Shown here in pieces: positions 4,879 to 20,894 of a DNA stretch of 64,000 nucleotides. The notes under the pieces were generated by a model, which searched no databases, was not told the origin of the DNA, and was given only the letters and a program-made list of their open reading frames with translations. The stretch spans positions 1,184,001-1,248,000 of the forward strand of contig OZ245046.1 in assembly GCA_965224245.1 (NCBI GenBank), written 5' to 3'. The stretch's first letter is position 1. Each line of letters opens with the position of its first letter. The translations under genes were made by a program, and so were the position numbers. Source of the DNA: Candidatus Eiseniibacteriota bacterium. GTDB taxonomy: Bacteria > Eisenbacteria > RBG-16-71-46 > CAZAMP01.

Positions 4879-6170
4879 CGCGTCACCACGCGGTGAAGGC
4901 CGGTGCCGTCGGGGGTGACCAGCCGGAGATACCGAACGCCGGCCGGGCCCCCGGCGCCGTCCCAGGCCACGCGATGGCGCCCCGGCGAGAGCCGGCGATC
5001 GACGAGGACGTCCAGGCGGCGACCGCTCACGTCGAACACCTCGAGGCGGGCGTGTCCCCCGTGGACGAGTTCGAGGGTCACAGTCGCCGCACCGCGCACC
5101 GGGTGGGGGCTGACCGCGAGCAGAGCCGACGGGGAGGAGACGCCCGGGGGCACGTCGATCGTGCCGGGTACGAAGCGCGTTCGGAACACGCCGCTGGTCC
5201 GCGTCGCCACGTAGACCGAGTCGCCGACCACGGTCGCGTCGAGCACGTCGAGGCCGGCCAGGTTGCCGGTCTCGTCGTGGAAGCCAGCCGGCGCGAACGA
5301 CGAGAACGCCACCGTACCGGACGTCGTGACGAGGACCGAGGGCTGGAGGATCCCGCGCGCGGTGATGGACTCCTCGCCGACCCACATGTTGCGACCGGGC
5401 AGCGTGGATACCTGGCTCCACTCGCTCTCGTCCGTGCGGCGCATGAACGTGCCGGCGCTGGAGCCGGTGTAGATCGACGTGTCGCCGCCGAGAGGAGGCA
5501 GCGGCGCCGGCTGCCACGCGGCCACGAAGTTGGTCACGGCACCGGGAAGCCCCGTGGACCACGACGTCCAGGAGGCACCGCCGTCGGTACTCCTGGAGAT
5601 CGGCGCGTCCCCGCTCAGGTACACGGAGTTCGCCTGATCCACCATCACCGACGTCATGCCGAACTGACCCGTCCCGAACAGCGTGGTCCACGTCTCACCG
5701 CCGTCGAGCGACCGCAGGAACTCCCCGGGCGAGACGTCCGGCAGGCTACACGCGTAGTAGCGATCGCGATCGAAGCCGTCGCGGGCGAGACCGGTCACGA
5801 GCCCGCCGTCGATGGGGTGGAAGTAGTCGCCGTTCTCGTCGAGACTGTCGCTGGTCTCGACGTATCCCTTGAAGAACGCGTTGACGCGCCCGGTGATCAC
5901 CCGGCTGGGCCGCATCTGGTGACCGATGATCGCGCCGACGTGGCGACCGATCCAGTCCTCCTCGTCGTGCTCCGCCCAGGTGTGCGTCGCGAAGTCGTAG
6001 ACGTGGAATCCCTCGATCGTTCCCACGAGCAGCCGTTCGTGCCACGGATCGTACGTGAGGCTCGTACACGAGATACCGCTCATGCCGGCGAGCTCCCAGT
6101 CGGCCGACCGGGAGCGCTCGGCCACGAGCGTCGAGAGGGTCAGAACGGCGAGCGCGACGGCGAGACGCAT
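4875..6170 (-). CDS. Secreted BNR/Asp-box beta-propeller protein with T9SS-like CTD
   Basis: Signal peptide; Asp-boxes RSLDGGETW and RSTDGGASW; CTD SPHP..VFDVSGRRL..WDG..GVRYLR. Confidence 0.8.
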   Translation of the reverse strand: MRLAVALAVLTLSTLVAERSRSADWELAGMSGISCTSLTYDPWHERLLVGTIEGFHVYDFATHTWAEHDEEDWIGRHVGAIIGHQMRPSRVITGRVNAFFKGYVETSDSLDENGDYFHPIDGGLVTGLARDGFDRDRYYACSLPDVSPGEFLRSLDGGETWTTLFGTGQFGMTSVMVDQANSVYLSGDAPISRSTDGGASWTSWSTGLPGAVTNFVAAWQPAPLPPLGGDTSIYTGSSAGTFMRRTDESEWSQVSTLPGRNMWVGEESITARGILQPSVLVTTSGTVAFSSFAPAGFHDETGNLAGLDVLDATVVGDSVYVATRTSGVFRTRFVPGTIDVPPGVSSPSALLAVSPHPVRGAATVTLELVHGGHARLEVFDVSGRRLDVLVDRRLSPGRHRVAWDGAGGPAGVRYLRLVTPDGTGLHRVVTR

Positions 6171-6359
6171 GATGACCTCCAGCGTAGAGGAACGCGATGG
6201 CCGACGAGTATGGTATCACGGACACGGTCGTCGCTCGACCCCGCATCCGGCCACGGAAAGGGCAACCTGTCGCGCACGATCGCGTACGCTTCGGGGTTGT
6301 CCAGCACGTTCACGGCGAGCGCGGGGACACGACATCTGAATCTGCGAGGTGAGCCTGAA

Positions 6360-8993
6360 ATGCGGTTGCTCCACTCGGTCATCGGCATCGCCGTCCTGAC
6401 GGCGCTCTCGACGTCGTCACCGACGACGGCGCTCGCCGAGGTACGGTCGTACACGACCACCCGAACGCCGCGGCCCCCGCGCATCGACGGCGTGCTCGAC
6501 GATGCCGAGTGGAACGCGGTCCCGTGGGCCGGCGAGTTCACACAGTTCGAGCCGACCGAGGGCGCGGCGCCGAGCGCCGACACGCGGTTCAAGATCCTCT
6601 ACGACGATGCGAACCTGTACATCGCGTACCGGGCCTTCGATGCCGAGCCCGCTGAGATCGCCAGCGTTCTGAGTCGCCGCGACGAGTTCCCGGGCGACTG
6701 GGTGGAGATCAACATCGACAGCTACCACGATCACCGGACGGCGTTCTCGTTCACCGCGAGCGTATCGGGTACGCAGGGCGACGAGTTCATCTCCGAGGAC
6801 GGCGACAGCTGGGACGGCAACTGGGATCCGGTCTGGGAGCACGAGGCGCGCATCGACCGCGAGGGGTGGACGGCCGAGGTCCGTATCCCGCTCAGTCAGC
6901 TCCGCTACGGCAACCACGACGAGCACGTGTGGGGCATCCAGGTGCAGCGCCGCATCTACCGGTACGAAGAGCGCTCGGTCTGGCAGCCCATTTCCCGGGA
7001 CGAAGAGGGCTGGGTCAGCAAGTTCGGCGAGCTCCGGGGAATCCGCGGCATCCGGGCTCAGCGCCGGCTGGAGGTGCTCCCGTACACGGTCGCGCGCGCC
7101 GAGCGCGTCGAGCGAATGGACGGGAATCCCTTCGCCGACGGCAGCGAGAACCGGCTCTCGGCCGGGCTCGACGGGAAGATCGGGGTCACGAGCGACCTGA
7201 CCCTCGATCTGACGGTGAACCCCGATTTCGGTCAGGTGGAGGCCGATCCCTCGGTGGTGAACCTCACCGCCTTCGAGACGTTCTTCTCCGAGAAGCGGCC
7301 GTTCTTCATCGAGGGGGCCAACATCTTCTCGTCGCGACTGGCCCCGTCGGTGGCGTTCGGGACGCACACCCAGGACCGGATCTTCTACTCGCGACGGATC
7401 GGTCGCCCACCTCAGGCCGAGCCCCGCGTCGACGGGTTCGTCGATCAGCCGGACAACACGTCCATCCTCGGGGCGGCCAAGCTGACCGGCAAGACCACGG
7501 GCGGCTGGTCCATCGGGCTCCTGGAGAGCGTGACCGCGCGCGAGCGAGCGGACGTGGAGGAGGACGGGGAGCGCGGCCAGGTCACGGTGGAGCCCGCGAC
7601 GAACTACCTGGTAGGCCGGGTCCAGAAGGACTTCCGGCGCGGACAGACACGCATCGGTGCGATGGTGACCGGCGTCAACCGCGACGTCGGGGATCCGGAG
7701 GTCGCGTTCCTCCACTCGAGCGCCACCGTGGGAGGTGTCGACTTCTTCCACTACGTCGACGAACGACGGTACTACGTGGCCCTGAACGCGGCGGCGAGCC
7801 GTGTGCACGGGGGCGAGGACGCGATCCTCAGGACGCAGCTGGCTCCCGCACGGTACTACCAGCGCCCCGACAACCGCGGTCAGGTGGTTGACACCACGCG
7901 CACGTCGCTGGTCGGCCACGGCGGGTCGCTCCGGCTGGGGAAGTCCTCAGGCAAGCTGAACGCCGAGGTCGGCGTGGCCTGGCGCTCACCGGGGTTCGAG
8001 CTCAACGACGTCGGCTATCTCCGAAACGCAGACGAGGTCAACCAGTTCGCCTGGGCCGGCTACTCCATCCGGAACCCGGTGGGGATCCTCCGCCGCATGT
8101 CGTTCAACGTGAACCAGTGGCTGGACTTCGAGTACGGGGGCGAGAACCTCTACCAGGCCGCGAACTTCAACACGAACGCCACGTTCCTGAACAACTGGAG
8201 CACCAACGCCTCGATCACGCGCGAGAACGAGCGCATCTCCGTGCACGAGCTCCGGGGCGGACCCTCGATGCGACTGCCGGGCTCGGTCAGCGCGAACGCC
8301 GAGCTGAACACCGACTGGCGCCGGACGCTGTCGGGGGGCGTGGGGGGCAGCGTCACGCGTCTCGACGACGACGCCGGCGATTCCAACGACCTGTGGTCCT
8401 GGGTGGCGTGGCGACCGAGCAACGCGATGCGATTGGAGCTGAGCACGTCGTACGGGCGAAACCGGCCCGAGCTCCAGTACGTGACGACCGCCGACCGGGC
8501 CGGGGAGGCCGCCTACGTGTTCGCGCGTCTCGAGCAGGAGACGCTGGATCTCTCGCTGCGCTTCGACTATGCGATCACGCCCGATCTCACCGTGCAGTAC
8601 TACGGGGCGCCGTTCGTGTCCGCCGGGACGTACGACGCGTTCAAGCGCATCGTCGACCCGCGGGCCGGCGAGTACGGTGACCGCTTCGTCGAGCTCGGCG
8701 AGGTGGCGAGGGACGACGCGTCGGCCGGGGTCTACACGGTCGACGAGGACGGCGACGGAGCCGAGGACTATCGCTTCAGCCAGCCGAACTTCGACGTCCG
8801 CGACTTCAACTCGAACCTGGTCGTTCGCTGGCAGTACTCGCCCGGCTCCAGCGTCTTCCTGGTGTGGTCTCAGGCCCGATTCGGCTTCGATCGCACCGGG
8901 CGGTTCGCGGCCGCCGACGACCTCGACGCGCTCTTCGATCGCCATCCGGACGACGTCTTTCTGATCAAGATCAACCGCTGGCTGGACCTGTAG
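6360..8993 (+). CDS. CBM9-like + DUF5916 protein, putative outer-membrane beta-barrel
   Basis: PRIDGVLDDAEW, YDDANLY, GWTAEVRIP, LDLTVNPDFGQVEAD, FETFFSEKRPFFIEG, FYSRRIG; signal peptide; C-terminal FLIKINRWLDL. Confidence 0.85.
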   Translation: MRLLHSVIGIAVLTALSTSSPTTALAEVRSYTTTRTPRPPRIDGVLDDAEWNAVPWAGEFTQFEPTEGAAPSADTRFKILYDDANLYIAYRAFDAEPAEIASVLSRRDEFPGDWVEINIDSYHDHRTAFSFTASVSGTQGDEFISEDGDSWDGNWDPVWEHEARIDREGWTAEVRIPLSQLRYGNHDEHVWGIQVQRRIYRYEERSVWQPISRDEEGWVSKFGELRGIRGIRAQRRLEVLPYTVARAERVERMDGNPFADGSENRLSAGLDGKIGVTSDLTLDLTVNPDFGQVEADPSVVNLTAFETFFSEKRPFFIEGANIFSSRLAPSVAFGTHTQDRIFYSRRIGRPPQAEPRVDGFVDQPDNTSILGAAKLTGKTTGGWSIGLLESVTARERADVEEDGERGQVTVEPATNYLVGRVQKDFRRGQTRIGAMVTGVNRDVGDPEVAFLHSSATVGGVDFFHYVDERRYYVALNAAASRVHGGEDAILRTQLAPARYYQRPDNRGQVVDTTRTSLVGHGGSLRLGKSSGKLNAEVGVAWRSPGFELNDVGYLRNADEVNQFAWAGYSIRNPVGILRRMSFNVNQWLDFEYGGENLYQAANFNTNATFLNNWSTNASITRENERISVHELRGGPSMRLPGSVSANAELNTDWRRTLSGGVGGSVTRLDDDAGDSNDLWSWVAWRPSNAMRLELSTSYGRNRPELQYVTTADRAGEAAYVFARLEQETLDLSLRFDYAITPDLTVQYYGAPFVSAGTYDAFKRIVDPRAGEYGDRFVELGEVARDDASAGVYTVDEDGDGAEDYRFSQPNFDVRDFNSNLVVRWQYSPGSSVFLVWSQARFGFDRTGRFAAADDLDALFDRHPDDVFLIKINRWLDL

Positions 8994-9040
8994 CCCATCG
9001 CCGGGCGAGGTCGCGCTCCGGGGGCGCCAGAGGGCGGCCG

Positions 9041-9059
9041 CAGGGCGCTCGGCGCCCTG
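9041..9059 (+). terminator. GC-rich hairpin after the DUF5916 gene, possible terminator
   Basis: cagggcgc-tcg-gcgccctg stem-loop; no U-tract. Confidence 0.35.
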
Positions 9060-9306
9060 GCGGGCCGGCTCCCCGGCGTCGGTGTTGGGCGGGAACCCGA
9101 TCCTCGTGGATTCTGGACATTGTGGAGGACACGATCATTCTATATTCTTGACCAATGATGTTCTCATAGACACCGAGTGTGTCCCCTTTGCGGCAATCGG
9201 GCGCCGGTCCACACGCCGATCCTCGCGTGACCGCGCGGGGTCGAAGTTCTCCGGTCGAATGGCCGGGTCGGCGCCGGTGGCCGATCGACGAGGGGCTACG
9301 ACATCC

Positions 9307-10419
9307 ATGGCAAGCGTCCCTGAGCCAAGACGGGTCCTGACGGTCTGGTTGGGCATCGGGCTCCTCCTCGGCGCGGTGGTGGTGACCAGCGCCGTCGTCG
9401 ACGTCGATCGGCGCGTCTCCGGTCGATGCCGCCTGCGTCCGCTCGCGCAGTGGACCCTGGTCGAGCTGCGTCCGGGAACGCTCGAGTCGAAGGCCATCGA
9501 CTACACCACGGGACAGACGCTTCACTACCAGCTCTACCAGTTCGAGCGCGACGCGTTCGTGGAGCTGCAGCTTCCCCAGTTCGAGTCCGAGGTCGATTCG
9601 CGCATTCACTACGACAGCGGCCGCCCGCTCGCGCACATCGAAGCCTCGTCGCTCGCCCTGATGATGGCCGAGCGACGCACCGCGTTGGAGCGGGCACGAG
9701 CGCGTCTGGCCGCCCTGGAGGCCGGAGCGAAGCCGGAGGAGCGCCGTCGGGCCGAGGTGGCCCTCGAGCAGGCGCGCGCTTCCCTGGAAGCATACCGGCC
9801 CCGGTACCAGCGCCAGCAGGGGCTGCATGCCGAGCGCCTCGTCAGCGACGACGTCTGGGAGGAGATCGAAGCCACGTATCGCCTGCGCGAGCTGGACGTC
9901 GAGCTGGCCCGGCGCGAGCTGGACGTGATCACGAGCGGCGCGCGCCCCGAGGAGATCGAGGCGGCAAGGGTGCTGGTAAACAACCTCGAGAGCGAGCTGG
10001 ATGTGCAGTCGCGGATGATGTCGGCACAGGAGGTGTCCTCGCCGGTCTCCGGCTGGCTGCGCGTCGGTGGACCCGACCAGGCGATGGTGACCGTGACCGA
10101 TCTCGATTCGATGGTCGTGGAGATCGCACTGCCCCAGCGCCACAGCGGTCGCCCGGAGCCCGGCAACCCCGTCCAGGTGTGGGTTCCCGGGCTCACGCGT
10201 GACGTGATCGACGGATGTGTCCTTCGTGTGGATCGGCGCGCGGCGTTGACGGCGCGGGGCGCGTACGTGACGGTGTGTGCCGCGATTCCGAACCCCGGGG
10301 GCATTCTCGAAGAGGGGCTGGAGGGGCGTGCCACGATCCGCTGCGGCCGGACATCGCTTCTGACGCAGTGGATGGACGACCTCTCCACGCTCGTCCGGCG
10401 CGAGCTGGCCGGGCTCTGA
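9307..10419 (+). CDS. HlyD-family periplasmic adaptor (membrane fusion protein)
   Basis: N-terminal TM helix, long coiled-coil hairpin with GAKPEE and GARPEEIEAA, lipoyl-like VSSPVSG, beta-barrel tail NPGGILEEGLEG. Confidence 0.8.
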   Translation: MASVPEPRRVLTVWLGIGLLLGAVVVTSAVVDVDRRVSGRCRLRPLAQWTLVELRPGTLESKAIDYTTGQTLHYQLYQFERDAFVELQLPQFESEVDSRIHYDSGRPLAHIEASSLALMMAERRTALERARARLAALEAGAKPEERRRAEVALEQARASLEAYRPRYQRQQGLHAERLVSDDVWEEIEATYRLRELDVELARRELDVITSGARPEEIEAARVLVNNLESELDVQSRMMSAQEVSSPVSGWLRVGGPDQAMVTVTDLDSMVVEIALPQRHSGRPEPGNPVQVWVPGLTRDVIDGCVLRVDRRAALTARGAYVTVCAAIPNPGGILEEGLEGRATIRCGRTSLLTQWMDDLSTLVRRELAGL

Positions 10420-10423
10420 CCGC

Positions 10424-11185
10424 GTGGATGCCCGGCGCCGGAACGGCGGAGCCTATACCCGGCACGAGCTCAAGTTCCCACTACCGGTCGCGCTCGTCGA
10501 CGAGATCCGATCGCGAGTGGAGAGCCACGTGGAGCCGGACCCCAACGCCGCCGGAGACGGCCGCGCCGTGTACACCGTGCGGAGTATCTACTTCGACACC
10601 GAGGATCTTCGCTTCTACTTCGAGAAGATCGACGGGCGCCGCACGCGCCGGAAGCTTCGCATCCGGACGTACGGCTCGAAGGCATCGGCGACGAACGCGT
10701 TCCTCGAGATCAAGCGCAAGCTGGACCGCACGTCGTTCAAGGAACGCGCCCGGGTCCCGGTGGCGGCCGTTTCGGCCATCCTGTCCTCGCGCTGGCCGGA
10801 TCCGCCGGACGCCGCCGCGCTCGACCGCGTGGGGGAGCGCGAAAGACGGGTGATCGAGAAGTTCCGGTACAACATGGACGTGTGCGAGCTCCGGCCCAGC
10901 GTGCTCGTGACCTACGATCGCGAGCCCTACGTCGCCACGCGCGGCGACATGGCGCGCGTGACATTCGACATGAACCTGCGTAGTCTCATCCGGCCCGGGC
11001 CGGACGATCTCTTCTCCGAGCGCCCGTTGCGCGAGTTTCACTCGGGGGGCTTCGTGCTGGAGCTGAAGTTCGACGAGTTCATGCCGCGCTGGATGGCCGA
11101 TCTCATGTCGGCCTTCAATCTCCGATCTCGAGCGTTCTCGAAGTACTGCCACGGCATCGACGCCTGGGAATGTCACGCCAAATGA
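10424..11185 (+). CDS. VTC-domain (polyphosphate polymerase / TTM tunnel fold) protein
   Basis: RHELKF, VRSIYFDT..LRFY.EK..G...RRKLRIRTY, FLEIKRK, YDREPY, RVTFD, VLELKF, FSKYC. Confidence 0.9.
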   Translation: MDARRRNGGAYTRHELKFPLPVALVDEIRSRVESHVEPDPNAAGDGRAVYTVRSIYFDTEDLRFYFEKIDGRRTRRKLRIRTYGSKASATNAFLEIKRKLDRTSFKERARVPVAAVSAILSSRWPDPPDAAALDRVGERERRVIEKFRYNMDVCELRPSVLVTYDREPYVATRGDMARVTFDMNLRSLIRPGPDDLFSERPLREFHSGGFVLELKFDEFMPRWMADLMSAFNLRSRAFSKYCHGIDAWECHAK

Positions 11186-11212
11186 CCGAGACTCCGCGCC
11201 GAGACGGCAGAG

Positions 11213-11911
11213 GTGACCTCCTTGGATGACTTCCTGCAAGGTCTGGCGATCCAGCCCGAGCCGTGGACGGTTCCCCAGATCGGGGTCAACATCGGGGTCG
11301 CGTTCGTCCTGGGCGTGTTGATCTCCTGGGTCTACCGGAGTACGCACCGCCAGCTCGCGGTGTCGTTCTCGCTGATGAACACGCTCGTGCTCCTGGCCAT
11401 GATCATGTCCATGGTCATGATGGTGATCGGCAACGACATCGCTCGTGCGTTCGGTCTGGCCGGCGCCATGTCGATCATCCGCTTCCGGACCGTGGTCAAA
11501 GACACCCGCGACACGGCATTCGTGTTCTTCGCGATCGGCGCCGGGATGGCGGCGGGCACCGGCAACCTCAAGATCGCCGTCGCGGGCACGCTGCTCATCT
11601 CGATCGGCGCCGAGATCCTCCACTGGACCCGACACGGGGCCGCGGCACGACGCTCGTATCTGCTCACCTTCGACGTGGCTCCCGAGCAGGCAGAGAGCGG
11701 CGCGGAGGTGTTCCGCGGCGTGTTCGACGCGCAGCTGGCGCGGCAGTCCCTGGTGAGCGTGAAGTCGGTCCGCATGGGACAGTTCCTGTCGCTCACCTAC
11801 CAGGTGGAGCTGCAGCCGCGCGCCACTTCGGAGCGCCTGGTGGCCGAGCTCTCGGCGCTCGAAGGCGTGCACCGCGTGACGCTCTCGTTCGGGGAAGAGG
11901 CCGAGAACTAG
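11213..11911 (+). CDS. DUF4956 membrane protein (MgtC-like TM region + ACT-like C-terminal domain)
   Basis: GNDIARAFGLAGAMSIIRFRTVVKDTRDTAFVFFAIGAGMAAG signature; several TM helices. Confidence 0.9.
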   Translation: MTSLDDFLQGLAIQPEPWTVPQIGVNIGVAFVLGVLISWVYRSTHRQLAVSFSLMNTLVLLAMIMSMVMMVIGNDIARAFGLAGAMSIIRFRTVVKDTRDTAFVFFAIGAGMAAGTGNLKIAVAGTLLISIGAEILHWTRHGAAARRSYLLTFDVAPEQAESGAEVFRGVFDAQLARQSLVSVKSVRMGQFLSLTYQVELQPRATSERLVAELSALEGVHRVTLSFGEEAEN

Positions 11912-11936
11912 CGTCGTCCAGGGTCGTGGGCGCCGG

Positions 11937-14015
11937 TCAATCCATCCGTACGATGGGCAACGTCGACGTCCGGCCGCCGCCGTCGACGCGAATCAGATAG
12001 CGACCGGCCGCCGCCGTTCGTCCGTCGTCGTCGCGCCCGTCCCAGTCGAGCGCATGCTCTCCGGACTCCAGCCTTCCCGCGAACAAGCGGCGTACCCGGC
12101 GGCCCGAGACGTCGAACACGTCGATGGCCAGGTCCGCGGGGTCGAGAAGCGAAAGCGACAGCCGCACGGAGCGAAGGCCCGGATTGGGGGCGGCATGGAG
12201 GACGAGCACCGCCGGCCCGTTCGATCCGGGGCTGATACCCAGCGGCTCGGGATTCGGGCCGCCGGGCGTGGGGGTGGTGAGCGCGGTCCAGCTGGCGACC
12301 CCGTTGGGCACGCGGCCCTCGCTCACGTCGGGCTCTTGTGGTCCATAGTCGTAGTAGTCCTGGACGGTCGTGCTGTCGGCGCCGGTGAGCATGACGACCT
12401 CCGATCCGCTCGACGAGAGGCTGAACCCGAGCGCCGTCTCGAACACCACGAGATACTCGTTCTCGCCGATCGTGGTACCCGCAGGGAAGCGGTACTTCAT
12501 CGGCTCGTCGGCATCGTCGGTGAGTCCCCACGCGCCGATGCCGACGGCGCTGTCTCCGCGGTTGTAGATCTCGATCCAGTCGTCCACGCCACCGATCGCA
12601 CTGGTCGTGAGCAGCTCGTTGAGGCACACCGCCGAGAAGAGCTGCGAGGTGTCGTTCGGCGTCCCCGGGGTCGGCGAGAGCAGATACTCCGGCGCGGTGG
12701 CGTCTCCCTCGGGGAAGTAGCCGAACGAGACGTCTTCTTGCTGTGGACCGAAGGACATCGCGTCCACCACGGTGTTGCCGTACGTCGCGGCGTCGAACAG
12801 GAAGAGTGACTCGCCCCCGGCGGATAGCCGAAACGTCGTGTGGCGCGGGCCATCTGCGGGGTCGCCGTCCGCCCAGAACATCACACGCTCACCGGGCGCG
12901 AGCGGGGTCGATGGAACGGCCCACATCTGCGTCTCGCCTGCGTCGTCGGACAGGTACATCCCGCCGAGGTCGACGCTGACCGCGTCGACGTTGAGGATCT
13001 CGATCCAGTCGTCGTAGTCGCCGGCCTCGTCCGAGGCCGTGGTGGCGTTGTCGGCCACGATCTCGTTGATTCGAACGCGCGGCGGCGTGTAGCCGACGAC
13101 ATAGCCCAGCACCGTTGTGGGCGCCCCCGCCGGGACGTTCGTGCGCCGACCGCCGCCGTCGACCGCGCTGACGAAGTACCGGACCGCGGTCCCCGTCGCG
13201 CGGGGGGCGATGACGGCCGTGTACACCGAATCGCCGGCCACGGCGTCGCCGAGCATGCCGTCGTCGCGCATCGCGGTCGGTGAGTAGCCGCCACCGTCGG
13301 AGACGAAGACGGCCGTGCTCACCACGACGTCGTCGTCCACGATGCGCGCCGCGATCGTCACGACGTCCGAGTCGATCGGCAGCCCGGGAACTCGGGTGAG
13401 GTCGGAGATCACGGGCGGGCGTGCGACGAGCACCGTGTTCGGGGCTCCGGGCGTGCCCGCGGGGTAGCCGTTGAGGCTGACCCCCCAGGAGGAGGCGAGC
13501 CCGTTGTCCGAGGCGGGATCGATCAGCTCCAGCGACGGGCCATCTCCGTCGGCCTCGGGCGGCCAGGGCGGGTCGTCGTCGTATGCGACGTCGTCGACCA
13601 TCGTCGAGCCGTCGTCGAAGAGCCGCACCGCGTCGCCGCCGTTGCCGAGTCCGAAGTCGAGGTTTCCGACCACCGGCACCGCCCCGCCGTACCTGGCGCG
13701 CATGCCGATCGTATCGGCCGAGACCACGAGGAAGCTCCCGGGCGCCAGGGCGACACCGCCAGGGATCGTGAACACGTGGGCGTCGTCGTCGTCCCGGAGC
13801 GACCATCCCGCGAGATCGATCGTGCTGGTTCCCGCGTTGAAGAGCTCCACGTACTCGGTGTCCACGTCGGCGCTGTTGTACATGATCTCGTTGATCACGA
13901 TGTCGCCGGGAGCGGAAGGAGCGGGGGCGTCGCTCCCCGGCGCCGCGGGCGCCGCGATGCGGACTGCGGCGCACAGGGACGCGATCGAGATGAGGGAGAC
14001 GACTCGGCGGTGCAT
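11937..14015 (-). CDS. Secreted protein with three lamin-tail domains and FlgD/T9SS-like CTD; no kinase domain
   Basis: GAGGAG RBS before ATG 14015. IVINEIMYN, VRINEIVADN and VCLNELL units with E/DWIE and (T/S)PG.PN motifs; MRDDG..GD..AGD motif; CTD. Confidence 0.85.
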   Translation of the reverse strand: MHRRVVSLISIASLCAAVRIAAPAAPGSDAPAPSAPGDIVINEIMYNSADVDTEYVELFNAGTSTIDLAGWSLRDDDDAHVFTIPGGVALAPGSFLVVSADTIGMRARYGGAVPVVGNLDFGLGNGGDAVRLFDDGSTMVDDVAYDDDPPWPPEADGDGPSLELIDPASDNGLASSWGVSLNGYPAGTPGAPNTVLVARPPVISDLTRVPGLPIDSDVVTIAARIVDDDVVVSTAVFVSDGGGYSPTAMRDDGMLGDAVAGDSVYTAVIAPRATGTAVRYFVSAVDGGGRRTNVPAGAPTTVLGYVVGYTPPRVRINEIVADNATTASDEAGDYDDWIEILNVDAVSVDLGGMYLSDDAGETQMWAVPSTPLAPGERVMFWADGDPADGPRHTTFRLSAGGESLFLFDAATYGNTVVDAMSFGPQQEDVSFGYFPEGDATAPEYLLSPTPGTPNDTSQLFSAVCLNELLTTSAIGGVDDWIEIYNRGDSAVGIGAWGLTDDADEPMKYRFPAGTTIGENEYLVVFETALGFSLSSSGSEVVMLTGADSTTVQDYYDYGPQEPDVSEGRVPNGVASWTALTTPTPGGPNPEPLGISPGSNGPAVLVLHAAPNPGLRSVRLSLSLLDPADLAIDVFDVSGRRVRRLFAGRLESGEHALDWDGRDDDGRTAAAGRYLIRVDGGGRTSTLPIVRMD

Positions 14016-14386
14016 GAGTCTCCTCGGAAGCGTGCGACACGCCAGTGGATCGAGATCAAGCATACCACGACCGTCTGCGTGTCCCGGCGGGCCACGGTGA
14101 CCGCCGGCCGCGCCGGCTGCGCACCGGGTGCGCTGCGGAGCTGCCGCATCGATGGCGTGCCGCCGGGGCGCCTCCCATCTCATCGAGCGGCACGTTTCCG
14201 ACCACCACGTCCACGGACCGGGCATCCGACCGGCACGTCGATGGTGATTGCGCGAGTGCCCGGCGAGCAGGTCGGACCGTGGTGCCGTGAGGAGATCCCT
14301 GCTAGAATCCTGCCATTCGCCACTCGCCCGGTACCGGGGACGACCCGTGCCGTCGTCGACGTCCAGTGGCAGGAACGGGGGCGGGA

Positions 14387-17300
14387 ATGACCGGTCTTCG
14401 GTCCTTGCTGATCGGTGCCACGCTTGTCTTCGCCTGCGCAGCGCACGGCTACGAGCAGCGCTTCAACTGCGGTGGGCCGGCTTACACCGCCGTGTCCGGC
14501 GACCTGTTCGCCGCCGACCAGCCCTACTCGGCCGGCGGCGCCGGCTACGTGTGGAGCGCGTTCGCCGACGACACCTGGGAGCCCATCCGCGGCACCCCGG
14601 ACGACTTTCTCTACGAGACCGTCCGGATGGGCAGCTACCGGTTCGACGTACCGAACGGCTGGTACCTGCTCACGGTTCACGTTTGCGACTTCTGGAGCCA
14701 CGGCCCACGCCAGAACCAGTACGACGTGCTGGCAGATGGTACCCAGGTGATCGCCGATCTCGACATCTATGCCGAGGTCGGCAAGGACCACCCGATGGTG
14801 TTCCGGTTCGCCGTCGAGATCACCGACGGCGCGCTGGACGTCGACACGCACGTCGACCGTCGCCACGCCTACCTCAACGCGCTCGAGGTCGAGTCGATCG
14901 TCCCCGACTCCGATGCTCCCGCGATTCCGGTCGGCCTGGTCGGGTACGACGGCTACAACCGGACCTCGCTTCGCTGGGATCCGAACACCGAGTCCGATCT
15001 GGCGGGCTACCGCGTGTACCGGAAGACCGAGCCCGCGGGGTCGTGGGTGCTCCTGACGGCGACGCCGCGCGTGGCCACGTGGTACCACGACGACACGGCC
15101 GTGGTCGGCACGTCCTACCGCTACCGGATCCGCGCGATCGACGTCTTCGGCAACCAGAGCGCCGACTCGCCGGACACGCCGGCGTCGCCCCGATCGATCG
15201 CCACGTCGACGCGTCCGGTGTACGAGATCTTCATGGATCTCGCCGATCTCGACGTGCTCAACACCGACGAGGCCACGCAGGGCGACGAGTACTTCCCGGC
15301 CACGTTCGTGGCGGGCGGCCAGGTGTTCCAGAACGTCGGCGTCCGGTACCGCGGAAACATCACGCGGACGCTTCCCAAGAAGTCCTGGAAGGTCCGGTTC
15401 AACGACGACGAGCTCTTCACCGCGACGGACCGGCTCAACCTGATCGCCGAGTACCCGGACATGTCGTTCATGCGCGAGTATCTCGCGTACGAGATGCTCC
15501 GCGAGAGCGGTCTCCCGTCGTCCACCAGCCGGATGATCAACCTGATGCTGAACGGCGAGTACATGGGCGTCTTCAACGACGTCCAGCAGGTCGACGAGAT
15601 ATACCTGCTCGAGAACGGCTTCACCGTGGGCGGCGACCTCTACAAGTGCGAGTCCGACTTCTCGGTGCTCCCCGACACGACCGCCTACGAGGCGGCGTAC
15701 GAGAACGAGACGAACCCCGGCGAGGGATACGGCGACCTGATCGACCTGATCCTCCGCGTGAACGAGACCCCGACCGACGTTCTCTGGCAGGCGCTGGCGC
15801 CTGATCTGGACATTCAGAACGCGGTCATGTGGTACAGCATCAACGTGTTCCTGGCGAACATGGACTTCCGATACAAGAACTACTACGTCTACCACGACGA
15901 GTCCGCCGATCGCTGGTCGTTCATCCCGTGGGACGTCGACTTCACCTTCGGCAAGGTCGCCATCTTCGATCAGAGCTACTACTCCGCGTCGTCGCTCTTT
16001 CTCGGAAGCGCCCACAAGTGGGCCTCGCGCATCCAGTCCACGCCGGCGCTGCGACGACTGCACCTCGAGAACATGACCTGGCTCGCGAACGACATACTCA
16101 CACCGGCGGTGTGGGTGCCCCGGATCCAGGCACTGCACGCCGATCTCACCGGGGACGTGACCATCGACTGGAGCAAGTTCGCGGTGACCGACCTCGCGGC
16201 GTTCGAGGCCGGGGAGCTCGGGATCGAGACCTTCCTCACGGATCGGGGACAGTTCGTCAGGGACAGCGCACCCGCGGTGGTCACGGACGACGGCCTGGTG
16301 ATCAACGAGTTCATGGCCCGGAACGCGACCACGGTTTTCGACGAGGCCGGAGAGCCCGAGGACTGGATCGAGATCTACAACGGATCGCCCGGCGCCAAGG
16401 ATCTCACCGGGATGTACCTGACCGACGATCCGGAGAACACCACCAAGTGGCCCATCCCACCGCTGGTGCTGGAGCCGGGGGGCTACGCGCTCTTCTGGGC
16501 CGACGACAGCGTGGCCGCCGGGCCGATGCACACGAACTTCCGGCTCGACGGCGACGGCGAGTTCGTGGGACTGTTCGAGTCGCTGGCGGCCGCGAACGTC
16601 CCACTCGACGTGCAGTACTTCGGCCCACAGCTCGTCGACGTCTCGCGTGGACGGTACGGCGAAGGCGAGCTGTACTGGACCGCGTTCGGCAATCCCTCTC
16701 CCGGGGGCGCGGCGAACGGTCCACCCAACGATCCGCCGGTCATCTCGGGGACGACACACACGCCCGCGTTTCCGGGCGCGATGGATCCCATCGACGTGTC
16801 GGCCTCGATTCAGGACCCGGACGGGATCGTGGAGGCGCTCGTCGTGTTCTCCGACGGTGCCGTGGTCGACTCGCTGGCGATGGCGGACGACGGAGCGAGC
16901 GGCGATGGCGAAGCCGGGGACGGGGTGTTCGGGGCCACGATTCCCGCGCAGCCCGACGGCACGACGCTCGACTACTTCATCCACGCACGGGATGGGGCGG
17001 GTGTGTCGGCCACCGATCCGATCGGCGCACCGGGCGAGACGTACGTCGTCGCCGTGGGCTACGCGCCACCGCCGTTGACCGTGAACGAGTTCATGGCCGA
17101 CAACACGGCCAGCTACGCGGACGAGTCCGGGGACTTCGACGACTGGGTCGAGATCCACAACGGCGGCACGACTCCGGTTCAGCTGGGCGACATGACGCTC
17201 ACCGACGATCTCCTCGTGCCCACGAAGTGGGCGTTTCCGGACACGATCCTGGCCCCCGGCGGTTTTCTCGTCGTCTTCTGCGACAACGAGCCGGGAGAGG

Positions 17301-18595
17301 GGCCGCTCCACGCGACCTTCCGGCTCGGGGCCGACGGCGAGGAGATCGGGCTATTCGAGCGCGTCGCGCTGGGAGGCGGACAGCTCGATGCGATCACGTT
17401 CGGCGCGCAGCGTCCCGACATCTCGTACGGACGCTACCCCGATGGCGGTGCCGCGCTGCAGTTCTTCGGGATTCCCACGCCGGGCGCGCCGAACGAGCCC
17501 GGCAACGCACCCCCGAACATCACCGACGTGGCCATCTCTCCGGATCCACCGGCGGCTGACTCCCCGGTCGTGGTCACGGCGGAGATCGTGGACGATGCGT
17601 CGGTCGCGGAAGCACACCTGCTCTACGACGCGACGGGGGCCGAGGAGTTCGTGCCGGTTCGGATGTGGGACGACGGCCTCCACGGGGATGGCGTCGGTGG
17701 CGATCGGGTGTACGGCGCGTCCATTCCCGGGTATCCCGATGGCACCGTGGTGCGGTTCTACCTGGAGGCCGAGGACGGAGAGGGGCTGGTCACCGCCGAC
17801 CCACCCGCGGGCGCGGAGGCCCCCTACGGATACCAGATCGGATACGTGTCACCGGCGCTCGCCGTCAACGAGATCATGGCCCTCAACACGACCACGATCG
17901 CCGACGAGATGGGGGAGTTCGACGACTGGGTCGAGATCCTGAACGACGGTCCGGACGCGGTCGATCTGGGGGGGCTGTACCTCTCCGACGATCTCGAGGC
18001 GCCGACGGCGTGGGCGTTGCCGGAGACGACGCTGGCCCCGGGCGGGTTCCTGCTCGTGTGGTGCGATGCGACGCCCGAGCAGGGTCCCCTCCACGCGTCC
18101 TTCCGACTGTCCGCCGACGGCGAGGAGATCGGGCTCTTCGAGTCGGAGAGTCAGTTCTTCGCACTGATCGACGGGTTCTCGTTCGCGGCGCAGATGCCGG
18201 ATACCTCCTACGGGCGGTTCCCCGACGGGTCTGGCGCGCTGCGCTACATGCCCATCCCGACTCCGGGCGCTCCGAACGAGCTGATCGGTGCTCCGGAGTC
18301 GCCGGGCATGCCGGGTGCGTTCACGATGCACGCGGCCTCACCCAATCCCTTCCGGAGCCGGGTGGCCCTGTCGTTCGATCTGCCCGAGGAGCGGGCCGAG
18401 GTTCGTCTCATGATCTACGACGTCGCGGGACGCCGGGTTCGCACGCTCGTCTCCGAGCCTCGGCGGCCGGGTCGCCATCTCGTCGTGTGGAACGGTCGCA
18501 CCGAGGACGGGCTCTCGTGCCGGCCCGGCGTGTACTTCGTGCGCCTGACCGCCGGCGCGGACCGTGCCTTGCGAAAGCTCATCAAGCTCGAGTAG
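14387..18595 (+). CDS. Secreted CotH-family kinase: malectin-like, FN3, CotH, three lamin-tail domains, FlgD/T9SS-like CTD
   Basis: RFNCGG malectin-like start; WDPNTESDLAGYRVYR FN3; CotH motifs VRYRGN, KKSWKVRF, MREYLAY, NMD..KNYYVY, IPWDVD; three (I/V)NE(F/I)MA LTD units; CTD SPNPF..IYDVAGRRVRTL. Confidence 0.9.
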   Translation: MTGLRSLLIGATLVFACAAHGYEQRFNCGGPAYTAVSGDLFAADQPYSAGGAGYVWSAFADDTWEPIRGTPDDFLYETVRMGSYRFDVPNGWYLLTVHVCDFWSHGPRQNQYDVLADGTQVIADLDIYAEVGKDHPMVFRFAVEITDGALDVDTHVDRRHAYLNALEVESIVPDSDAPAIPVGLVGYDGYNRTSLRWDPNTESDLAGYRVYRKTEPAGSWVLLTATPRVATWYHDDTAVVGTSYRYRIRAIDVFGNQSADSPDTPASPRSIATSTRPVYEIFMDLADLDVLNTDEATQGDEYFPATFVAGGQVFQNVGVRYRGNITRTLPKKSWKVRFNDDELFTATDRLNLIAEYPDMSFMREYLAYEMLRESGLPSSTSRMINLMLNGEYMGVFNDVQQVDEIYLLENGFTVGGDLYKCESDFSVLPDTTAYEAAYENETNPGEGYGDLIDLILRVNETPTDVLWQALAPDLDIQNAVMWYSINVFLANMDFRYKNYYVYHDESADRWSFIPWDVDFTFGKVAIFDQSYYSASSLFLGSAHKWASRIQSTPALRRLHLENMTWLANDILTPAVWVPRIQALHADLTGDVTIDWSKFAVTDLAAFEAGELGIETFLTDRGQFVRDSAPAVVTDDGLVINEFMARNATTVFDEAGEPEDWIEIYNGSPGAKDLTGMYLTDDPENTTKWPIPPLVLEPGGYALFWADDSVAAGPMHTNFRLDGDGEFVGLFESLAAANVPLDVQYFGPQLVDVSRGRYGEGELYWTAFGNPSPGGAANGPPNDPPVISGTTHTPAFPGAMDPIDVSASIQDPDGIVEALVVFSDGAVVDSLAMADDGASGDGEAGDGVFGATIPAQPDGTTLDYFIHARDGAGVSATDPIGAPGETYVVAVGYAPPPLTVNEFMADNTASYADESGDFDDWVEIHNGGTTPVQLGDMTLTDDLLVPTKWAFPDTILAPGGFLVVFCDNEPGEGPLHATFRLGADGEEIGLFERVALGGGQLDAITFGAQRPDISYGRYPDGGAALQFFGIPTPGAPNEPGNAPPNITDVAISPDPPAADSPVVVTAEIVDDASVAEAHLLYDATGAEEFVPVRMWDDGLHGDGVGGDRVYGASIPGYPDGTVVRFYLEAEDGEGLVTADPPAGAEAPYGYQIGYVSPALAVNEIMALNTTTIADEMGEFDDWVEILNDGPDAVDLGGLYLSDDLEAPTAWALPETTLAPGGFLLVWCDATPEQGPLHASFRLSADGEEIGLFESESQFFALIDGFSFAAQMPDTSYGRFPDGSGALRYMPIPTPGAPNELIGAPESPGMPGAFTMHAASPNPFRSRVALSFDLPEERAEVRLMIYDVAGRRVRTLVSEPRRPGRHLVVWNGRTEDGLSCRPGVYFVRLTAGADRALRKLIKLE

Positions 18596-18688
18596 CGCGC
18601 AGGAGACCCCGTCGGGCGGCGGGATCTCTCCACACCAACCGCGCCCGTCCCCGCGGCTGCCGGACTCGGCACGCAGTCTCGCCCGAGG

Positions 18689-19726
18689 TCACCGGACGAG
18701 CGAGATCCGCCGTGTCACGACGGCACCCGGCCGATCGAGCCGTTCCACGCGAACGAAGTAGCAGCCGGAGGGGGCCCGGTCCCCGGGCGCCCAGGCGAGA
18801 ACGTGCCGGCCCGGCGCCACCGCTCCCGACGCGAGCTCGGCCACCCGGCGTCCGGCGGCATCGAAGACGTCCGCGCGGACCGCGAGAGCCTGCTCGGCAT
18901 CGAGGGCCACCCGAACGTCCGCACGCGCCGGATTGGGGCCGACCGAGAGCACGCGAAGTCCTTTCGGTGCCGCGTCGGCGAAGCCGACACCGACGGTCCC
19001 CCGGAAGTCGTCGTACAGCTCCTGCAGGAGATCGATCGGGTTCTGACTGGACGTCGTGCTGTTGACGTTGAGATCCATCCAGAGGTCGGATACCGCATCC
19101 CCGGGCTTCGCCACGCGGATGAACGCGGAGATCGCCGGCTTCGACGTGCAGCGGGTGTCGGCGCCCGGCACGTTCGCGGCCTGAAGCGCGGCCATCAGCT
19201 TGTCGGCGAGATCGCCCGGCGTCGTCTGGAACGCGGTGGCCATGTCGTCGAGGATCACCTGGCCCAGGAGGATGTTGCCGGCCACGACGAACGTGGGGAA
19301 CAGGTCGTGCCCCTTGTAGTCGTAGCAGTTCTCCCCGGTGAACCCCGCGGTGCGGCCACCATCCACGAGGTCGACGATTCCGTACTGCCGGACGGTCGGA
19401 TCGCCCTGAGCGTCGTTGACCACGAGCGAATCGATGATGTCCTCGGGAGCGAAGCCGGCGTCCATCAGGGCGCGTGCGTAGGCCTGATTGGTACCGTTCC
19501 AGAACGACTGGGTGTGGATCACACCCAGATCCGGGTGCACGTCGCTGAGGATGATCGACCCCGAGATGCAGGATGCCCCGGCGCTGCCGACCTCTCCGGT
19601 CGCGGGATCCACCGCCGCGATCGAGAACGTGGCGTGCGCCGATGGGGCCCATGTCGCCAGAGCCGCGGCGAGGAGAAGCGGCTCGAGGCGTGACGGGCGC
19701 GAGAGCGATGGATGCAGGCGAAACAT
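18689..19726 (-). CDS. Secreted DUF1028 (Ntn-hydrolase-like) protein with T9SS-like CTD
   Basis: AHA|TFSIAAVDPATGEVG, RQYGIVD..G.TAGFTG, VAGNIL; CTD GPNP..VFDAAGRRV. Confidence 0.85.
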   Translation of the reverse strand: MFRLHPSLSRPSRLEPLLLAAALATWAPSAHATFSIAAVDPATGEVGSAGASCISGSIILSDVHPDLGVIHTQSFWNGTNQAYARALMDAGFAPEDIIDSLVVNDAQGDPTVRQYGIVDLVDGGRTAGFTGENCYDYKGHDLFPTFVVAGNILLGQVILDDMATAFQTTPGDLADKLMAALQAANVPGADTRCTSKPAISAFIRVAKPGDAVSDLWMDLNVNSTTSSQNPIDLLQELYDDFRGTVGVGFADAAPKGLRVLSVGPNPARADVRVALDAEQALAVRADVFDAAGRRVAELASGAVAPGRHVLAWAPGDRAPSGCYFVRVERLDRPGAVVTRRISLVR

Positions 19727-20045
19727 GGCGGACTCCAGTCGGCCCCGGCGGGCCGTGCTCGAAACGGCGAGGGCGCGAGGCTCGACTATACCGCATTCCT
19801 CCGGCCTCCGATCACCAGAAGGCGGCGGAGACACCGGGCGAGCCCGCGTGCATGGATCTCCACCGGACGCCCCGGACGAGACCACGAGCGGACGGACCTG
19901 GGAGTGGCAACACGCCGGCTCCCTCGCGAGCCGCATCCGCGGGACCGCCGCCGCCCACCGCGTTCCCGAGAAGCCCCGGTGACTGATACACTCGTGGGCC
20001 TGGATGGGTGGTTCTAACGTCCTTGCGTCACACGAGGAGGGAATC

Positions 20046-20894
20046 GTGTTTGCATCCGCAGCTCGCGCAGCGGTGGTGACCGCGATGGGAATTGCGGTGG
20101 CCGGCCCCGGGGTCGCCATGCCCACGTCGATCACCGACACGACGGCGGGTACCGCCACAAACGACGGCACGATCGGCGGCGGTGAGTACGTGGGCTCGTC
20201 GCTGGGCATCAACTCCGGCTTCGGGAACGTGATCGGAGATCTCTCCGAGCTGTTCATCGATTCCGACACCGGCGGTGCGGTCAACCTCGGCCTGCGCACC
20301 GGTGGCGGCGGTCTGTTCGACGCCGTCGTCATCTATCTCGACGTCACACCCGGCGGGTTCGGCGACACGACCCCGTTCGACGACATTGCCGACGGCCTGC
20401 GCCGCGCAATCTCCGCGACAGACGGTACGAACCGCTCGGACATCACGTTCGCGCCGGGTTTCGAGGCCGACTACGCGATCGGAATCGAGCAGAACTTCGC
20501 GGGTGTCTGGAGCCTCGTCGGGGGAGGGAGCCACACGTTCCTGACCTCGGCCAACCTGACCCCGACCGGGAACCCGAGCGCCGGCGAGTTCGAGATCGAC
20601 TTCGACCTGTCGACCATCGGCCTGTCACCCGGCGACTCGTTCGACTACGTCGTGACGTACTTGAACTCCGGCAACGCGTTCCGGTCCGACGAGTTCCACG
20701 GCGTGGCCTCGTCGACGGTCCCGCCGGGTAACCCGGGCCAGAACCCGACGACGCTGGCGTCGGGCGACTTCAACACGTTCACGTCCGTCGCACCGTCGGA
20801 CGGTGTCCGCGCACCGGCAATGGCGCCGGTGACCGTGCTCCTGGTCACGGGGGCGATGGGGCTGGCCGCGCGCCGGCGCCTCCGCCGCCGCTAG
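20046..20894 (+). CDS. Secreted protein with C-terminal TM + poly-Arg sorting tail (IPTL/PEP-CTERM-like)
   Basis: GAGGAGG RBS before GTG 20046; signal peptide; ends APAMAPVTVLLVTGAMGLAARRRLRRR. Confidence 0.75.
   Translation: MFASAARAAVVTAMGIAVAGPGVAMPTSITDTTAGTATNDGTIGGGEYVGSSLGINSGFGNVIGDLSELFIDSDTGGAVNLGLRTGGGGLFDAVVIYLDVTPGGFGDTTPFDDIADGLRRAISATDGTNRSDITFAPGFEADYAIGIEQNFAGVWSLVGGGSHTFLTSANLTPTGNPSAGEFEIDFDLSTIGLSPGDSFDYVVTYLNSGNAFRSDEFHGVASSTVPPGNPGQNPTTLASGDFNTFTSVAPSDGVRAPAMAPVTVLLVTGAMGLAARRRLRRR

Follow-up and report, generated by a model that had tools for sequence, protein, structure and literature searches.

A VTC-DUF4956 operon with a dedicated periplasmic adaptor: a candidate system for polyphosphate synthesis and export in Candidatus Eiseniibacteriota

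Organization of the locus

Examining a stretch of 64,000 nucleotides (nt) from a Candidatus Eiseniibacteriota bacterium (contig OZ245046.1, positions 1,184,001 to 1,248,000; "the window" below), we found three plus-strand genes packed into an operon that encodes a periplasmic adaptor of 370 amino acids (aa; 9307..10419), a VTC tunnel-domain protein of 253 aa (10424..11185), and a DUF4956 membrane protein of 232 aa (11213..11911). The gaps between them measure 4 and 27 nt, as tight as an initial annotation of the same DNA had claimed. The VTC assignment rests on a Pfam match of 145 bits, over the cut-off, and that of DUF4956 on 60 bits against a cut-off of 30.6; the adaptor, near the cut-off of Pfam HlyD_3, is identified by its AlphaFold model and by a subfamily profile.

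A lamin-tail protein and a CotH kinase had also been described as following the three genes. Both are there, with 692 aa (11937..14015; Pfam LTD, 169 bits) and 1402 aa (14387..18595; Pfam CotH, 177 bits), each over its cut-off, but the lamin-tail gene lies on the minus strand, convergent on the DUF4956 gene with 25 nt between the stop codons, and the plus-strand CotH gene diverges from it, with 371 nt between them. Because of the opposite strand of the lamin-tail gene, the five genes cannot share one transcript, and the operon consists of the adaptor, VTC, and DUF4956 genes only. Scanning positions 8900-19000 for sigma-70 promoters and terminators returned no site of either kind. A six-frame scan of the window found no ABC motif pair and no RND-profile match, in agreement with the initial annotation. 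One public contig matches positions 6000-20500 without differences; it is possibly the source of the assembly and so is not independent.

A VTC enzyme with a complete active site and an obligate membrane partner

The VTC protein consists of the VTC domain alone, lacking an SPX domain, a membrane domain, and any hydrophobic segment, and is predicted to be cytoplasmic. All nine active-site residues of yeast Vtc4 are kept: K17, R79, R81, K97, Y164, R166, E213, S239, and K240 correspond, in that order, to Vtc4 K200, R264, R266, K281, Y359, R361, E426, S457, and K458. In Vtc4, these residues hold the triphosphate and Mn, and K458 separates the active Vtc4 from Vtc2 and Vtc3, which lack it (10.1101/2023.01.27.525886). 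Among 40 homologs from adaptor-type loci, eight of the nine positions are invariant and the S457 position is kept in 39. A profile built from 72 homologs (A2) scores yeast Vtc4 at 88 bits, Vtc2/3 at 40-56 bits, and the inorganic triphosphatase 5a60 at 12 bits (E 0.86). Judged by its active site, the protein is likely to have polyphosphate (polyP) polymerase activity. PPK1 and PPK2 are also encoded in the same genome, and a further polymerase is therefore easiest to explain if it delivers its product to a different place.

To place this operon in a wider context, we surveyed 66 VTC loci, 25 of them from the own phylum (153 genomes) and the others from a Bacteroidota-centred sample (251 genomes; 404 in total), where 41 of 43 matches were used and one locus and one fragment were omitted. 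Kin are not independent in any of the survey counts, which therefore overstate the number of events. VTC matches occur in 25 of 153, 38 of 251, and 13 of 121 genomes in three phylum samples. A DUF4956 gene lies within 4 kilobases (kb) of VTC on the same strand in 66 of the 66 loci of the two surveyed samples; VTC and DUF4956 are an obligate pair.

The predicted structure of the DUF4956 protein (pLDDT 88) comprises five helices followed by an ACT-like domain at the C-terminus. Y41, R90, R92, and an acidic residue at position 100, kept in 71 of 71 homologs, are found at the end of a Gly/Ala-rich third helix. MgtC profiles match the protein below their cut-offs (Pfam, 19.5 against 31.4 bits; NCBIfam, 31.5 against 214), and in fold comparison the model hits 2lqj and 7qa5, both C-terminal domains of MgtC, at a Z score of 9.2, tied with S6 and NikR in a list where many ACT and S6 folds score alike. 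Fold and sequence searches, their lists filled by the ACT domain and the membrane part barely probed, gave no Vtc1-like match.

A periplasmic adaptor dedicated to VTC

The adaptor falls just below the cut-off of Pfam HlyD_3 (21.5 against 22.2), but its AlphaFold model (pLDDT 94) matches MacA, AcrA, and EmrA (Foldseek E values of 2e-15 to 1e-12), and the hairpin, lipoyl, and beta-barrel domains with a membrane anchor uphold its identification as a HlyD-type adaptor. It has an N-terminal membrane helix, a long hairpin, and an extra N-terminal beta insert with conserved W49 and R81. Its nearest Atlas clusters are hypothetical proteins.

A profile of this adaptor (A1) was built from 101 sequences, the query and its 100 closest homologs of similar length from the best 150 listed, all chosen blind to their gene neighbours. 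In the own phylum, with 13 candidates scored per genome, 15 full-length matches were found, each of at least 245 bits and one cut by a contig end; the other A1 matches among the matches listed start at about position 88 or later and reach at most 206 bits. The Bacteroidota-centred sample contributed 20 more full-length matches. Each of the 35 immediately precedes a VTC gene, as do 33 of 33 when the two seed genomes are set aside. The adaptor is a member of a VTC-dedicated subfamily, in contrast to other adaptors, which lack the subfamily-specific N-terminal insert and whose A1 matches begin at about position 88. In the literature searched, with supplements and subscription journals outside its scope, no paper on a link between such an adaptor and VTC was found.

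The next-closest relatives of the adaptor (P0055, P0057, P0060, P0106, P0122, and P0130) include fusions of 720-770 aa with an N-terminal, weakly matching M50-peptidase domain, one of which also carries a PqqD domain. Similar long adaptor matches in the own phylum do not adjoin VTC.

Envelope partners of VTC across the survey

The 66 loci differ in their envelope partner: 35 have the dedicated adaptor, 6 a divergent adaptor, 7 a Porin_O_P gene, 7 a DUF2490 gene (which we take to encode an outer-membrane barrel), and 11 none, so that 20 of the 31 loci without the dedicated adaptor have another adaptor, Porin_O_P, or DUF2490 gene. Two of these assignments were adjusted: L069 was called a divergent adaptor by hand from Pfam, and L059 was added to the Porin_O_P class from a later Pfam scan. 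On a quick tree, partner type follows the VTC phylogeny, with the porin and DUF2490 loci forming one clade (support 100) that has Phe at the Y359 position. The 15 Bacillota VTC loci, seen with 1.5-kb flanks, have DUF4956 in 14 cases, an adjacent CotH gene in 6, and an adaptor in none. The linkage of a HlyD-type adaptor to VTC and DUF4956, first noted at this one locus, thus recurs across diderm genomes, with 35 of 35 full-length matches there and 0 of 15 in monoderm loci. Transport across the envelope is supported chiefly by this pattern, a conduit gene that is present where cells have two membranes and absent where they have one.

Motif and profile searches beside the 35 adaptor loci gave no ABC exporter or RND pump, with MFS transporters checked through Pfam matches of near neighbours. 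Only three ABC-motif genes lie near adaptor loci, two of ABC-F type and one of SbcC type, and the only RND gene in the survey, at L059, has its own adaptor and TolC. TolC is adjacent at L069, where it lies between the divergent adaptor and VTC, and at L127 and L129, two loci of a sister module described below. The local TolC profile is insensitive, recovering 2 of the 9 TolC genes of the own genome, and the absence of TolC at other loci rests on a Pfam scan of 126 representative near neighbours. As an outer-membrane partner at the locus itself, we considered the CBM9 and DUF5916 gene at 6360-8993 on the plus strand, 313 nt upstream of the operon; it was rejected because its homologs occur in 0 of 31 related loci and three close paralogs lie elsewhere in the genome.

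Several other neighbours recur. The loci where VTC and DUF4956 are accompanied by a Porin_O_P gene in place of an adaptor are L025, L026, L027, L041, L042, L043, and L059, and in L027 three porin genes and two VTC genes precede a PhoU-like gene and a Pit phosphate transporter gene. DUF2490 genes accompany VTC and DUF4956 in Bacteroidota-type genomes (L070, L071, L074, L076, L077, L079, and L081). SdiA-regulated/phytase-like genes directly follow the trio in 6 of the 35 adaptor loci (L030, L036, L040, L047, L052, and L058); the genomes of L030, L036, and L040 have no CotH match. A conserved 720-aa protein without a clear Pfam family is encoded directly after DUF4956 in L051 (11256-13478) and also in L055 and L056.

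CotH and lamin-tail proteins are recurring but optional neighbours

The CotH protein consists, in order, of a malectin domain, the CotH domain (residues ~319-623), three lamin-tail domains, and a FlgD/type IX secretion system (T9SS)-type tail. Its catalytic motifs are intact, as first noted (NMD491, KNYY497, and WDVD515), and align with Bacillus CotH (5jd9; E 4e-21). K332, D493, N498, and D516, presumably the conserved Lys, the catalytic-loop Asp and Asn, and the metal-binding Asp, are conserved in 58-65 of 66 homologs; at position 400, where 63 of 66 have Glu, this protein has Gln (Q400), as does its ortholog of 52% identity. Bacillus CotH phosphorylates CotB and CotG (PMC11841064).

The lamin-tail protein, made up of three lamin-tail domains and a FlgD/T9SS-type tail, is a paralog of the CotH protein's C-terminal half and lacks the kinase domain. 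These paralogous domains account for the inverted similarity of 70-79% between the two genes; an inversion as its origin was rejected, since no joint points to one. Close homologs of the lamin-tail protein flank VTC in three other loci. The tail is common to hundreds of proteins of the genome (351 tblastn matches; weak PorV matches), which places both proteins probably at the surface or outside the cell, and N-terminal hydrophobic stretches suggest that both are secreted. A second malectin-CotH-lamin-tail gene of the same genome (L028:6798-10286; C1, 2.04 Mb), 35% identical, lies far from the operon.

The proposed linkage of CotH to VTC and DUF4956 held in part. Of the 25 own-phylum loci, 8 have a CotH gene within ~10 kb of VTC, compared to 0.14 that chance would give (16 genomes with both; kin not independent), and over all 66 loci, 19 have one near VTC; an enrichment so far above chance makes some functional tie likely. 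However, CotH is present within ~10 kb in only 12 of the 35 adaptor loci (11 of the 25 where ~20 kb is visible), and different CotH lineages are involved. In the own-phylum sample, 14 of 30 CotH-bearing genomes have no VTC match, and 3 of 15 trio genomes have no CotH match. A tree of 66 CotH domains drew on 25 VTC-adjacent proteins, 24 whose genomes lack a VTC match, and 17 distant ones (40 of 72 listed matches were used); in it, the VTC-adjacent proteins are polyphyletic, with at least 7 independent changes. A search for a CotH subfamily specialized for polyP found none: the Lys plus Arg fraction is 0.104 compared to 0.095, and no alignment column is enriched in basic residues.

The sister of the CotH protein studied here (support 98) is a full-length ortholog, 52% identical over 1402 aa, in a genome (G001) that has 12 CotH matches and no match to VTC, DUF4956, or the full-length adaptor. 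No trio gene lies within the 20 kb examined around this ortholog; the assembly is 97% complete in 110 contigs, and with the lamin-tail ortholog 568 nt from a contig end, an unassembled trio is possible. The lamin-tail and CotH genes are recurring but optional neighbours of the operon.

Co-occurrence of VTC, DUF4956, and CotH genes in other bacteria, mentioned in the initial annotation, is published for Gram-positive pel loci: cotH, a polyphosphate polymerase gene, DUF4956, and DUF4832 lie beside pel operons (10.1101/768473), and NELoc-2 of Clostridium perfringens holds VTC and CotH genes (PMC2879425). These loci share with ours the same three families side by side. In contrast to them, the locus described here has a two-membrane host, a dedicated adaptor, and no pel-type family in a Pfam scan that covered the flanking genes rather than the whole window, and its CotH gene is separately transcribed and encodes a 1402-aa protein with malectin, lamin-tail, and T9SS-type domains. 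According to one study, the trio is not found outside pel loci (PMC12345266); contrary to this, our survey of 66 loci finds VTC, DUF4956, and CotH together in many non-pel settings. In Streptococcus intermedius, aggregation was lower only in the DUF4956-type and CotH deletion mutants, and Pel changed in opposite directions in these two, going up in the DUF4956-type mutant (PMC12345266). For the aggregation and Pel readout, these phenotypes are at odds with a linear pathway from VTC through DUF4956 to CotH.

A model for polyphosphate synthesis and export

We tentatively propose, with a confidence a little short of even, that the operon encodes a polyP synthase whose activity is coupled to export through both membranes. 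The VTC enzyme, with its complete set of active-site residues, would make polyP from ATP in its tunnel on the cytoplasmic side, and the chain would enter a DUF4956 oligomer in the inner membrane, where R90 and R92 may line a pore, as basic rings do in the yeast channel, and, if the ACT domain is cytoplasmic, would face the cytoplasm and the enzyme. The dedicated adaptor, judged by its modelled fold and its gene linkage, would carry the chain over the periplasm to a duct in the outer membrane, for which a TolC encoded at another locus probably serves. The product would thus arrive at the surface, apart from the cytoplasmic PPK1/PPK2 pool. The lamin-tail and CotH proteins would be optional surface partners that may bind or act alongside the polymer, with CotH presumably independent of it. 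What stands of the VTC-DUF4956 synthase-translocase with a HlyD bridge originally put forward is the obligate pair, the dedicated adaptor, and the full active site; a dedicated TolC is missing. A broader generalization, that VTC-type polyP synthases wired to an exporter (an MgtC-like inner-membrane channel, joined in two-membrane cells by either a dedicated adaptor and TolC or a phosphate-porin-type barrel) are widespread in bacteria, appears possible rather than probable.

A number of observations weigh against this model. The window contains no TolC gene, and all 9 TolC genes of the genome have another adaptor, an RND pump, or an ABC gene as neighbour, so that a shared duct must be assumed for the operon. 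Envelope partners are absent at 11 of the 66 loci, one of them at a contig end. DUF4956 is MgtC-like with an ACT domain and not recognisably Vtc1-like. The bacterial enzymes have the motif RxExK (or RxDxK) compared to RxTxK in Vtc4 (E15 against T198), and the acidic residue at E15 matches what we take to be the motif of tunnel hydrolases. No report of bacterial VTC activity was found in the literature searched, and no aggregation defect is reported, in the available text, for deletion of the polymerase domain in S. intermedius (PMC12345266). Phosphate-porin, Pit/PhoU, and phytase-like neighbours fit uptake equally well. Finally, a sister module occurs in three genomes without a VTC match (L127:4238-8588, L128:5291-8189, and L129:5945-10104), in which a gene for a secreted DUF3616 protein and a DUF4956/MgtC-like gene converge on an adaptor gene, with TolC in two of the three; its DUF3616 genes show weak phytase-like similarity. 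This module backs DUF4956-like proteins as the membrane partner of the adaptor, and it indicates that the membrane protein and the adaptor can exist without a VTC enzyme.

Some of these observations would suit a system for phosphate acquisition or turnover, in which secreted enzymes free phosphate or short polyP outside the cell, DUF4956 lets these in after they have passed a porin or duct, and the tunnel enzyme then hydrolyses the polymer or transfers phosphate to ADP. The Porin_O_P genes at 7 VTC loci, the Pit transporter and PhoU-like genes of L027, the phytase-like genes that follow the trio or, with weak similarity, belong to the sister module, and the retained acidic E15 all point this way. 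However, the solved MacA-type systems matched by the adaptor are all known to serve outward transport; the VTC protein resembles Vtc4 much more than it does the solved triphosphatase and retains the equivalent of K458; and there is no Pho-box-like enrichment upstream of 39 adaptor genes, where none reached 11 of 14 matches in a crude scan. We consider uptake unlikely.

The ACT domain and MgtC similarity of DUF4956 could instead indicate, in place of bulk export, a unit for phosphate or nucleotide sensing or for phosphotransfer, in which the tunnel enzyme and an MgtC-like ACT protein modify or regulate a surface polymer and the adaptor is a scaffold. The Gram-positive copies lie in pel loci, deletion of the DUF4956-type gene raises Pel and lowers aggregation (10.1101/768473; PMC12345266), carbohydrate-binding neighbours such as Cthe_2159 and malectin occur, and there is no dedicated TolC here. 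A scaffold role is less easily reconciled with the one-to-one dedicated adaptor, the porin-like genes that take its place in other clades, and its absence in monoderm loci, which together argue for a conduit; moreover, the 35 adaptor loci have no conserved neighbouring genes for polysaccharide synthesis. Such a unit seems improbable to us.

That exported polyP is the phosphate donor of a surface CotH kinase where ATP is scarce, as the initial annotation supposed, is very doubtful: CotH is enriched near VTC in the own phylum and directly adjacent in 6 of 15 Bacillota loci, different CotH lineages were recruited repeatedly, and the catalytic residues are intact, but the linkage is optional, many CotH genomes have no VTC match, the polyphyletic VTC-adjacent kinases gained no basic residues, an ortholog persists in the VTC-less G001, and the Streptococcus mutants do not phenocopy one another (PMC12345266).

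Relation to known systems and significance

In the export model, the operon functions as a yeast VTC complex coupled with a tripartite duct would, though it belongs to neither kind. With the yeast complex (Vtc4/Vtc3 or Vtc2/Vtc1; 3g3q, 8i6v, and 7ytj) it shares the tunnel domain with 9 of 9 residues and the pairing of the enzyme with a small membrane protein bearing conserved arginines. It differs in having an enzyme of 253 aa that stands alone, with RxExK and with neither an SPX nor a membrane domain, an MgtC-like partner of five helices plus ACT instead of the three helices of Vtc1, and a periplasmic adaptor link. MacAB-TolC, AcrAB-TolC, and EmrAB-TolC resemble it in adaptor fold and N-terminal membrane anchor, whereas the locus here lacks an ABC, RND, or MFS pump and TolC. 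MgtC/SapB proteins share a membrane domain and an ACT-like C-terminal domain, with weak MgtC matches, but the best family here is DUF4956, and pairing with VTC is obligate. Synthase-dependent exopolysaccharide export, as of alginate by Alg8-Alg44-AlgE, follows a similar logic, with a polymer synthase in the inner membrane, a periplasmic partner resembling an adaptor, and an exit through the outer membrane; here, there is no glycosyltransferase and the candidate polymer is inorganic.

A 2026 paper assigns VTC4 to eukaryotes and gives as the general view that microbes metabolise polyP only within the cell (PMC13318637). Surface polyP exists in bacteria (PMC10237660, whose available text does not contain the words "export" or "transport"), and the three-gene unit is a small candidate for both its synthesis and its secretion. 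If the model is correct, bacteria have a route of polyP synthesis besides PPK1 and PPK2, as well as a dedicated polyP secretion system that represents a new inner-membrane class for tripartite exporters. The unit might then be an ancestor-like form of the eukaryotic VTC machine and shed light on how that complex originated. Two large uncharacterised families would gain a function, and there would be consequences for phosphorus cycling in the environment and for metal binding and biomineralisation at the cell surface.

Other features of the window

Beyond the genes discussed above, a 296-aa secreted-looking protein with a sorting-like C-terminal tail and no Pfam match is encoded at 20004-20894 on the plus strand, and an open frame of 3037 aa lies near the end of the window on the minus strand (54737-63850).

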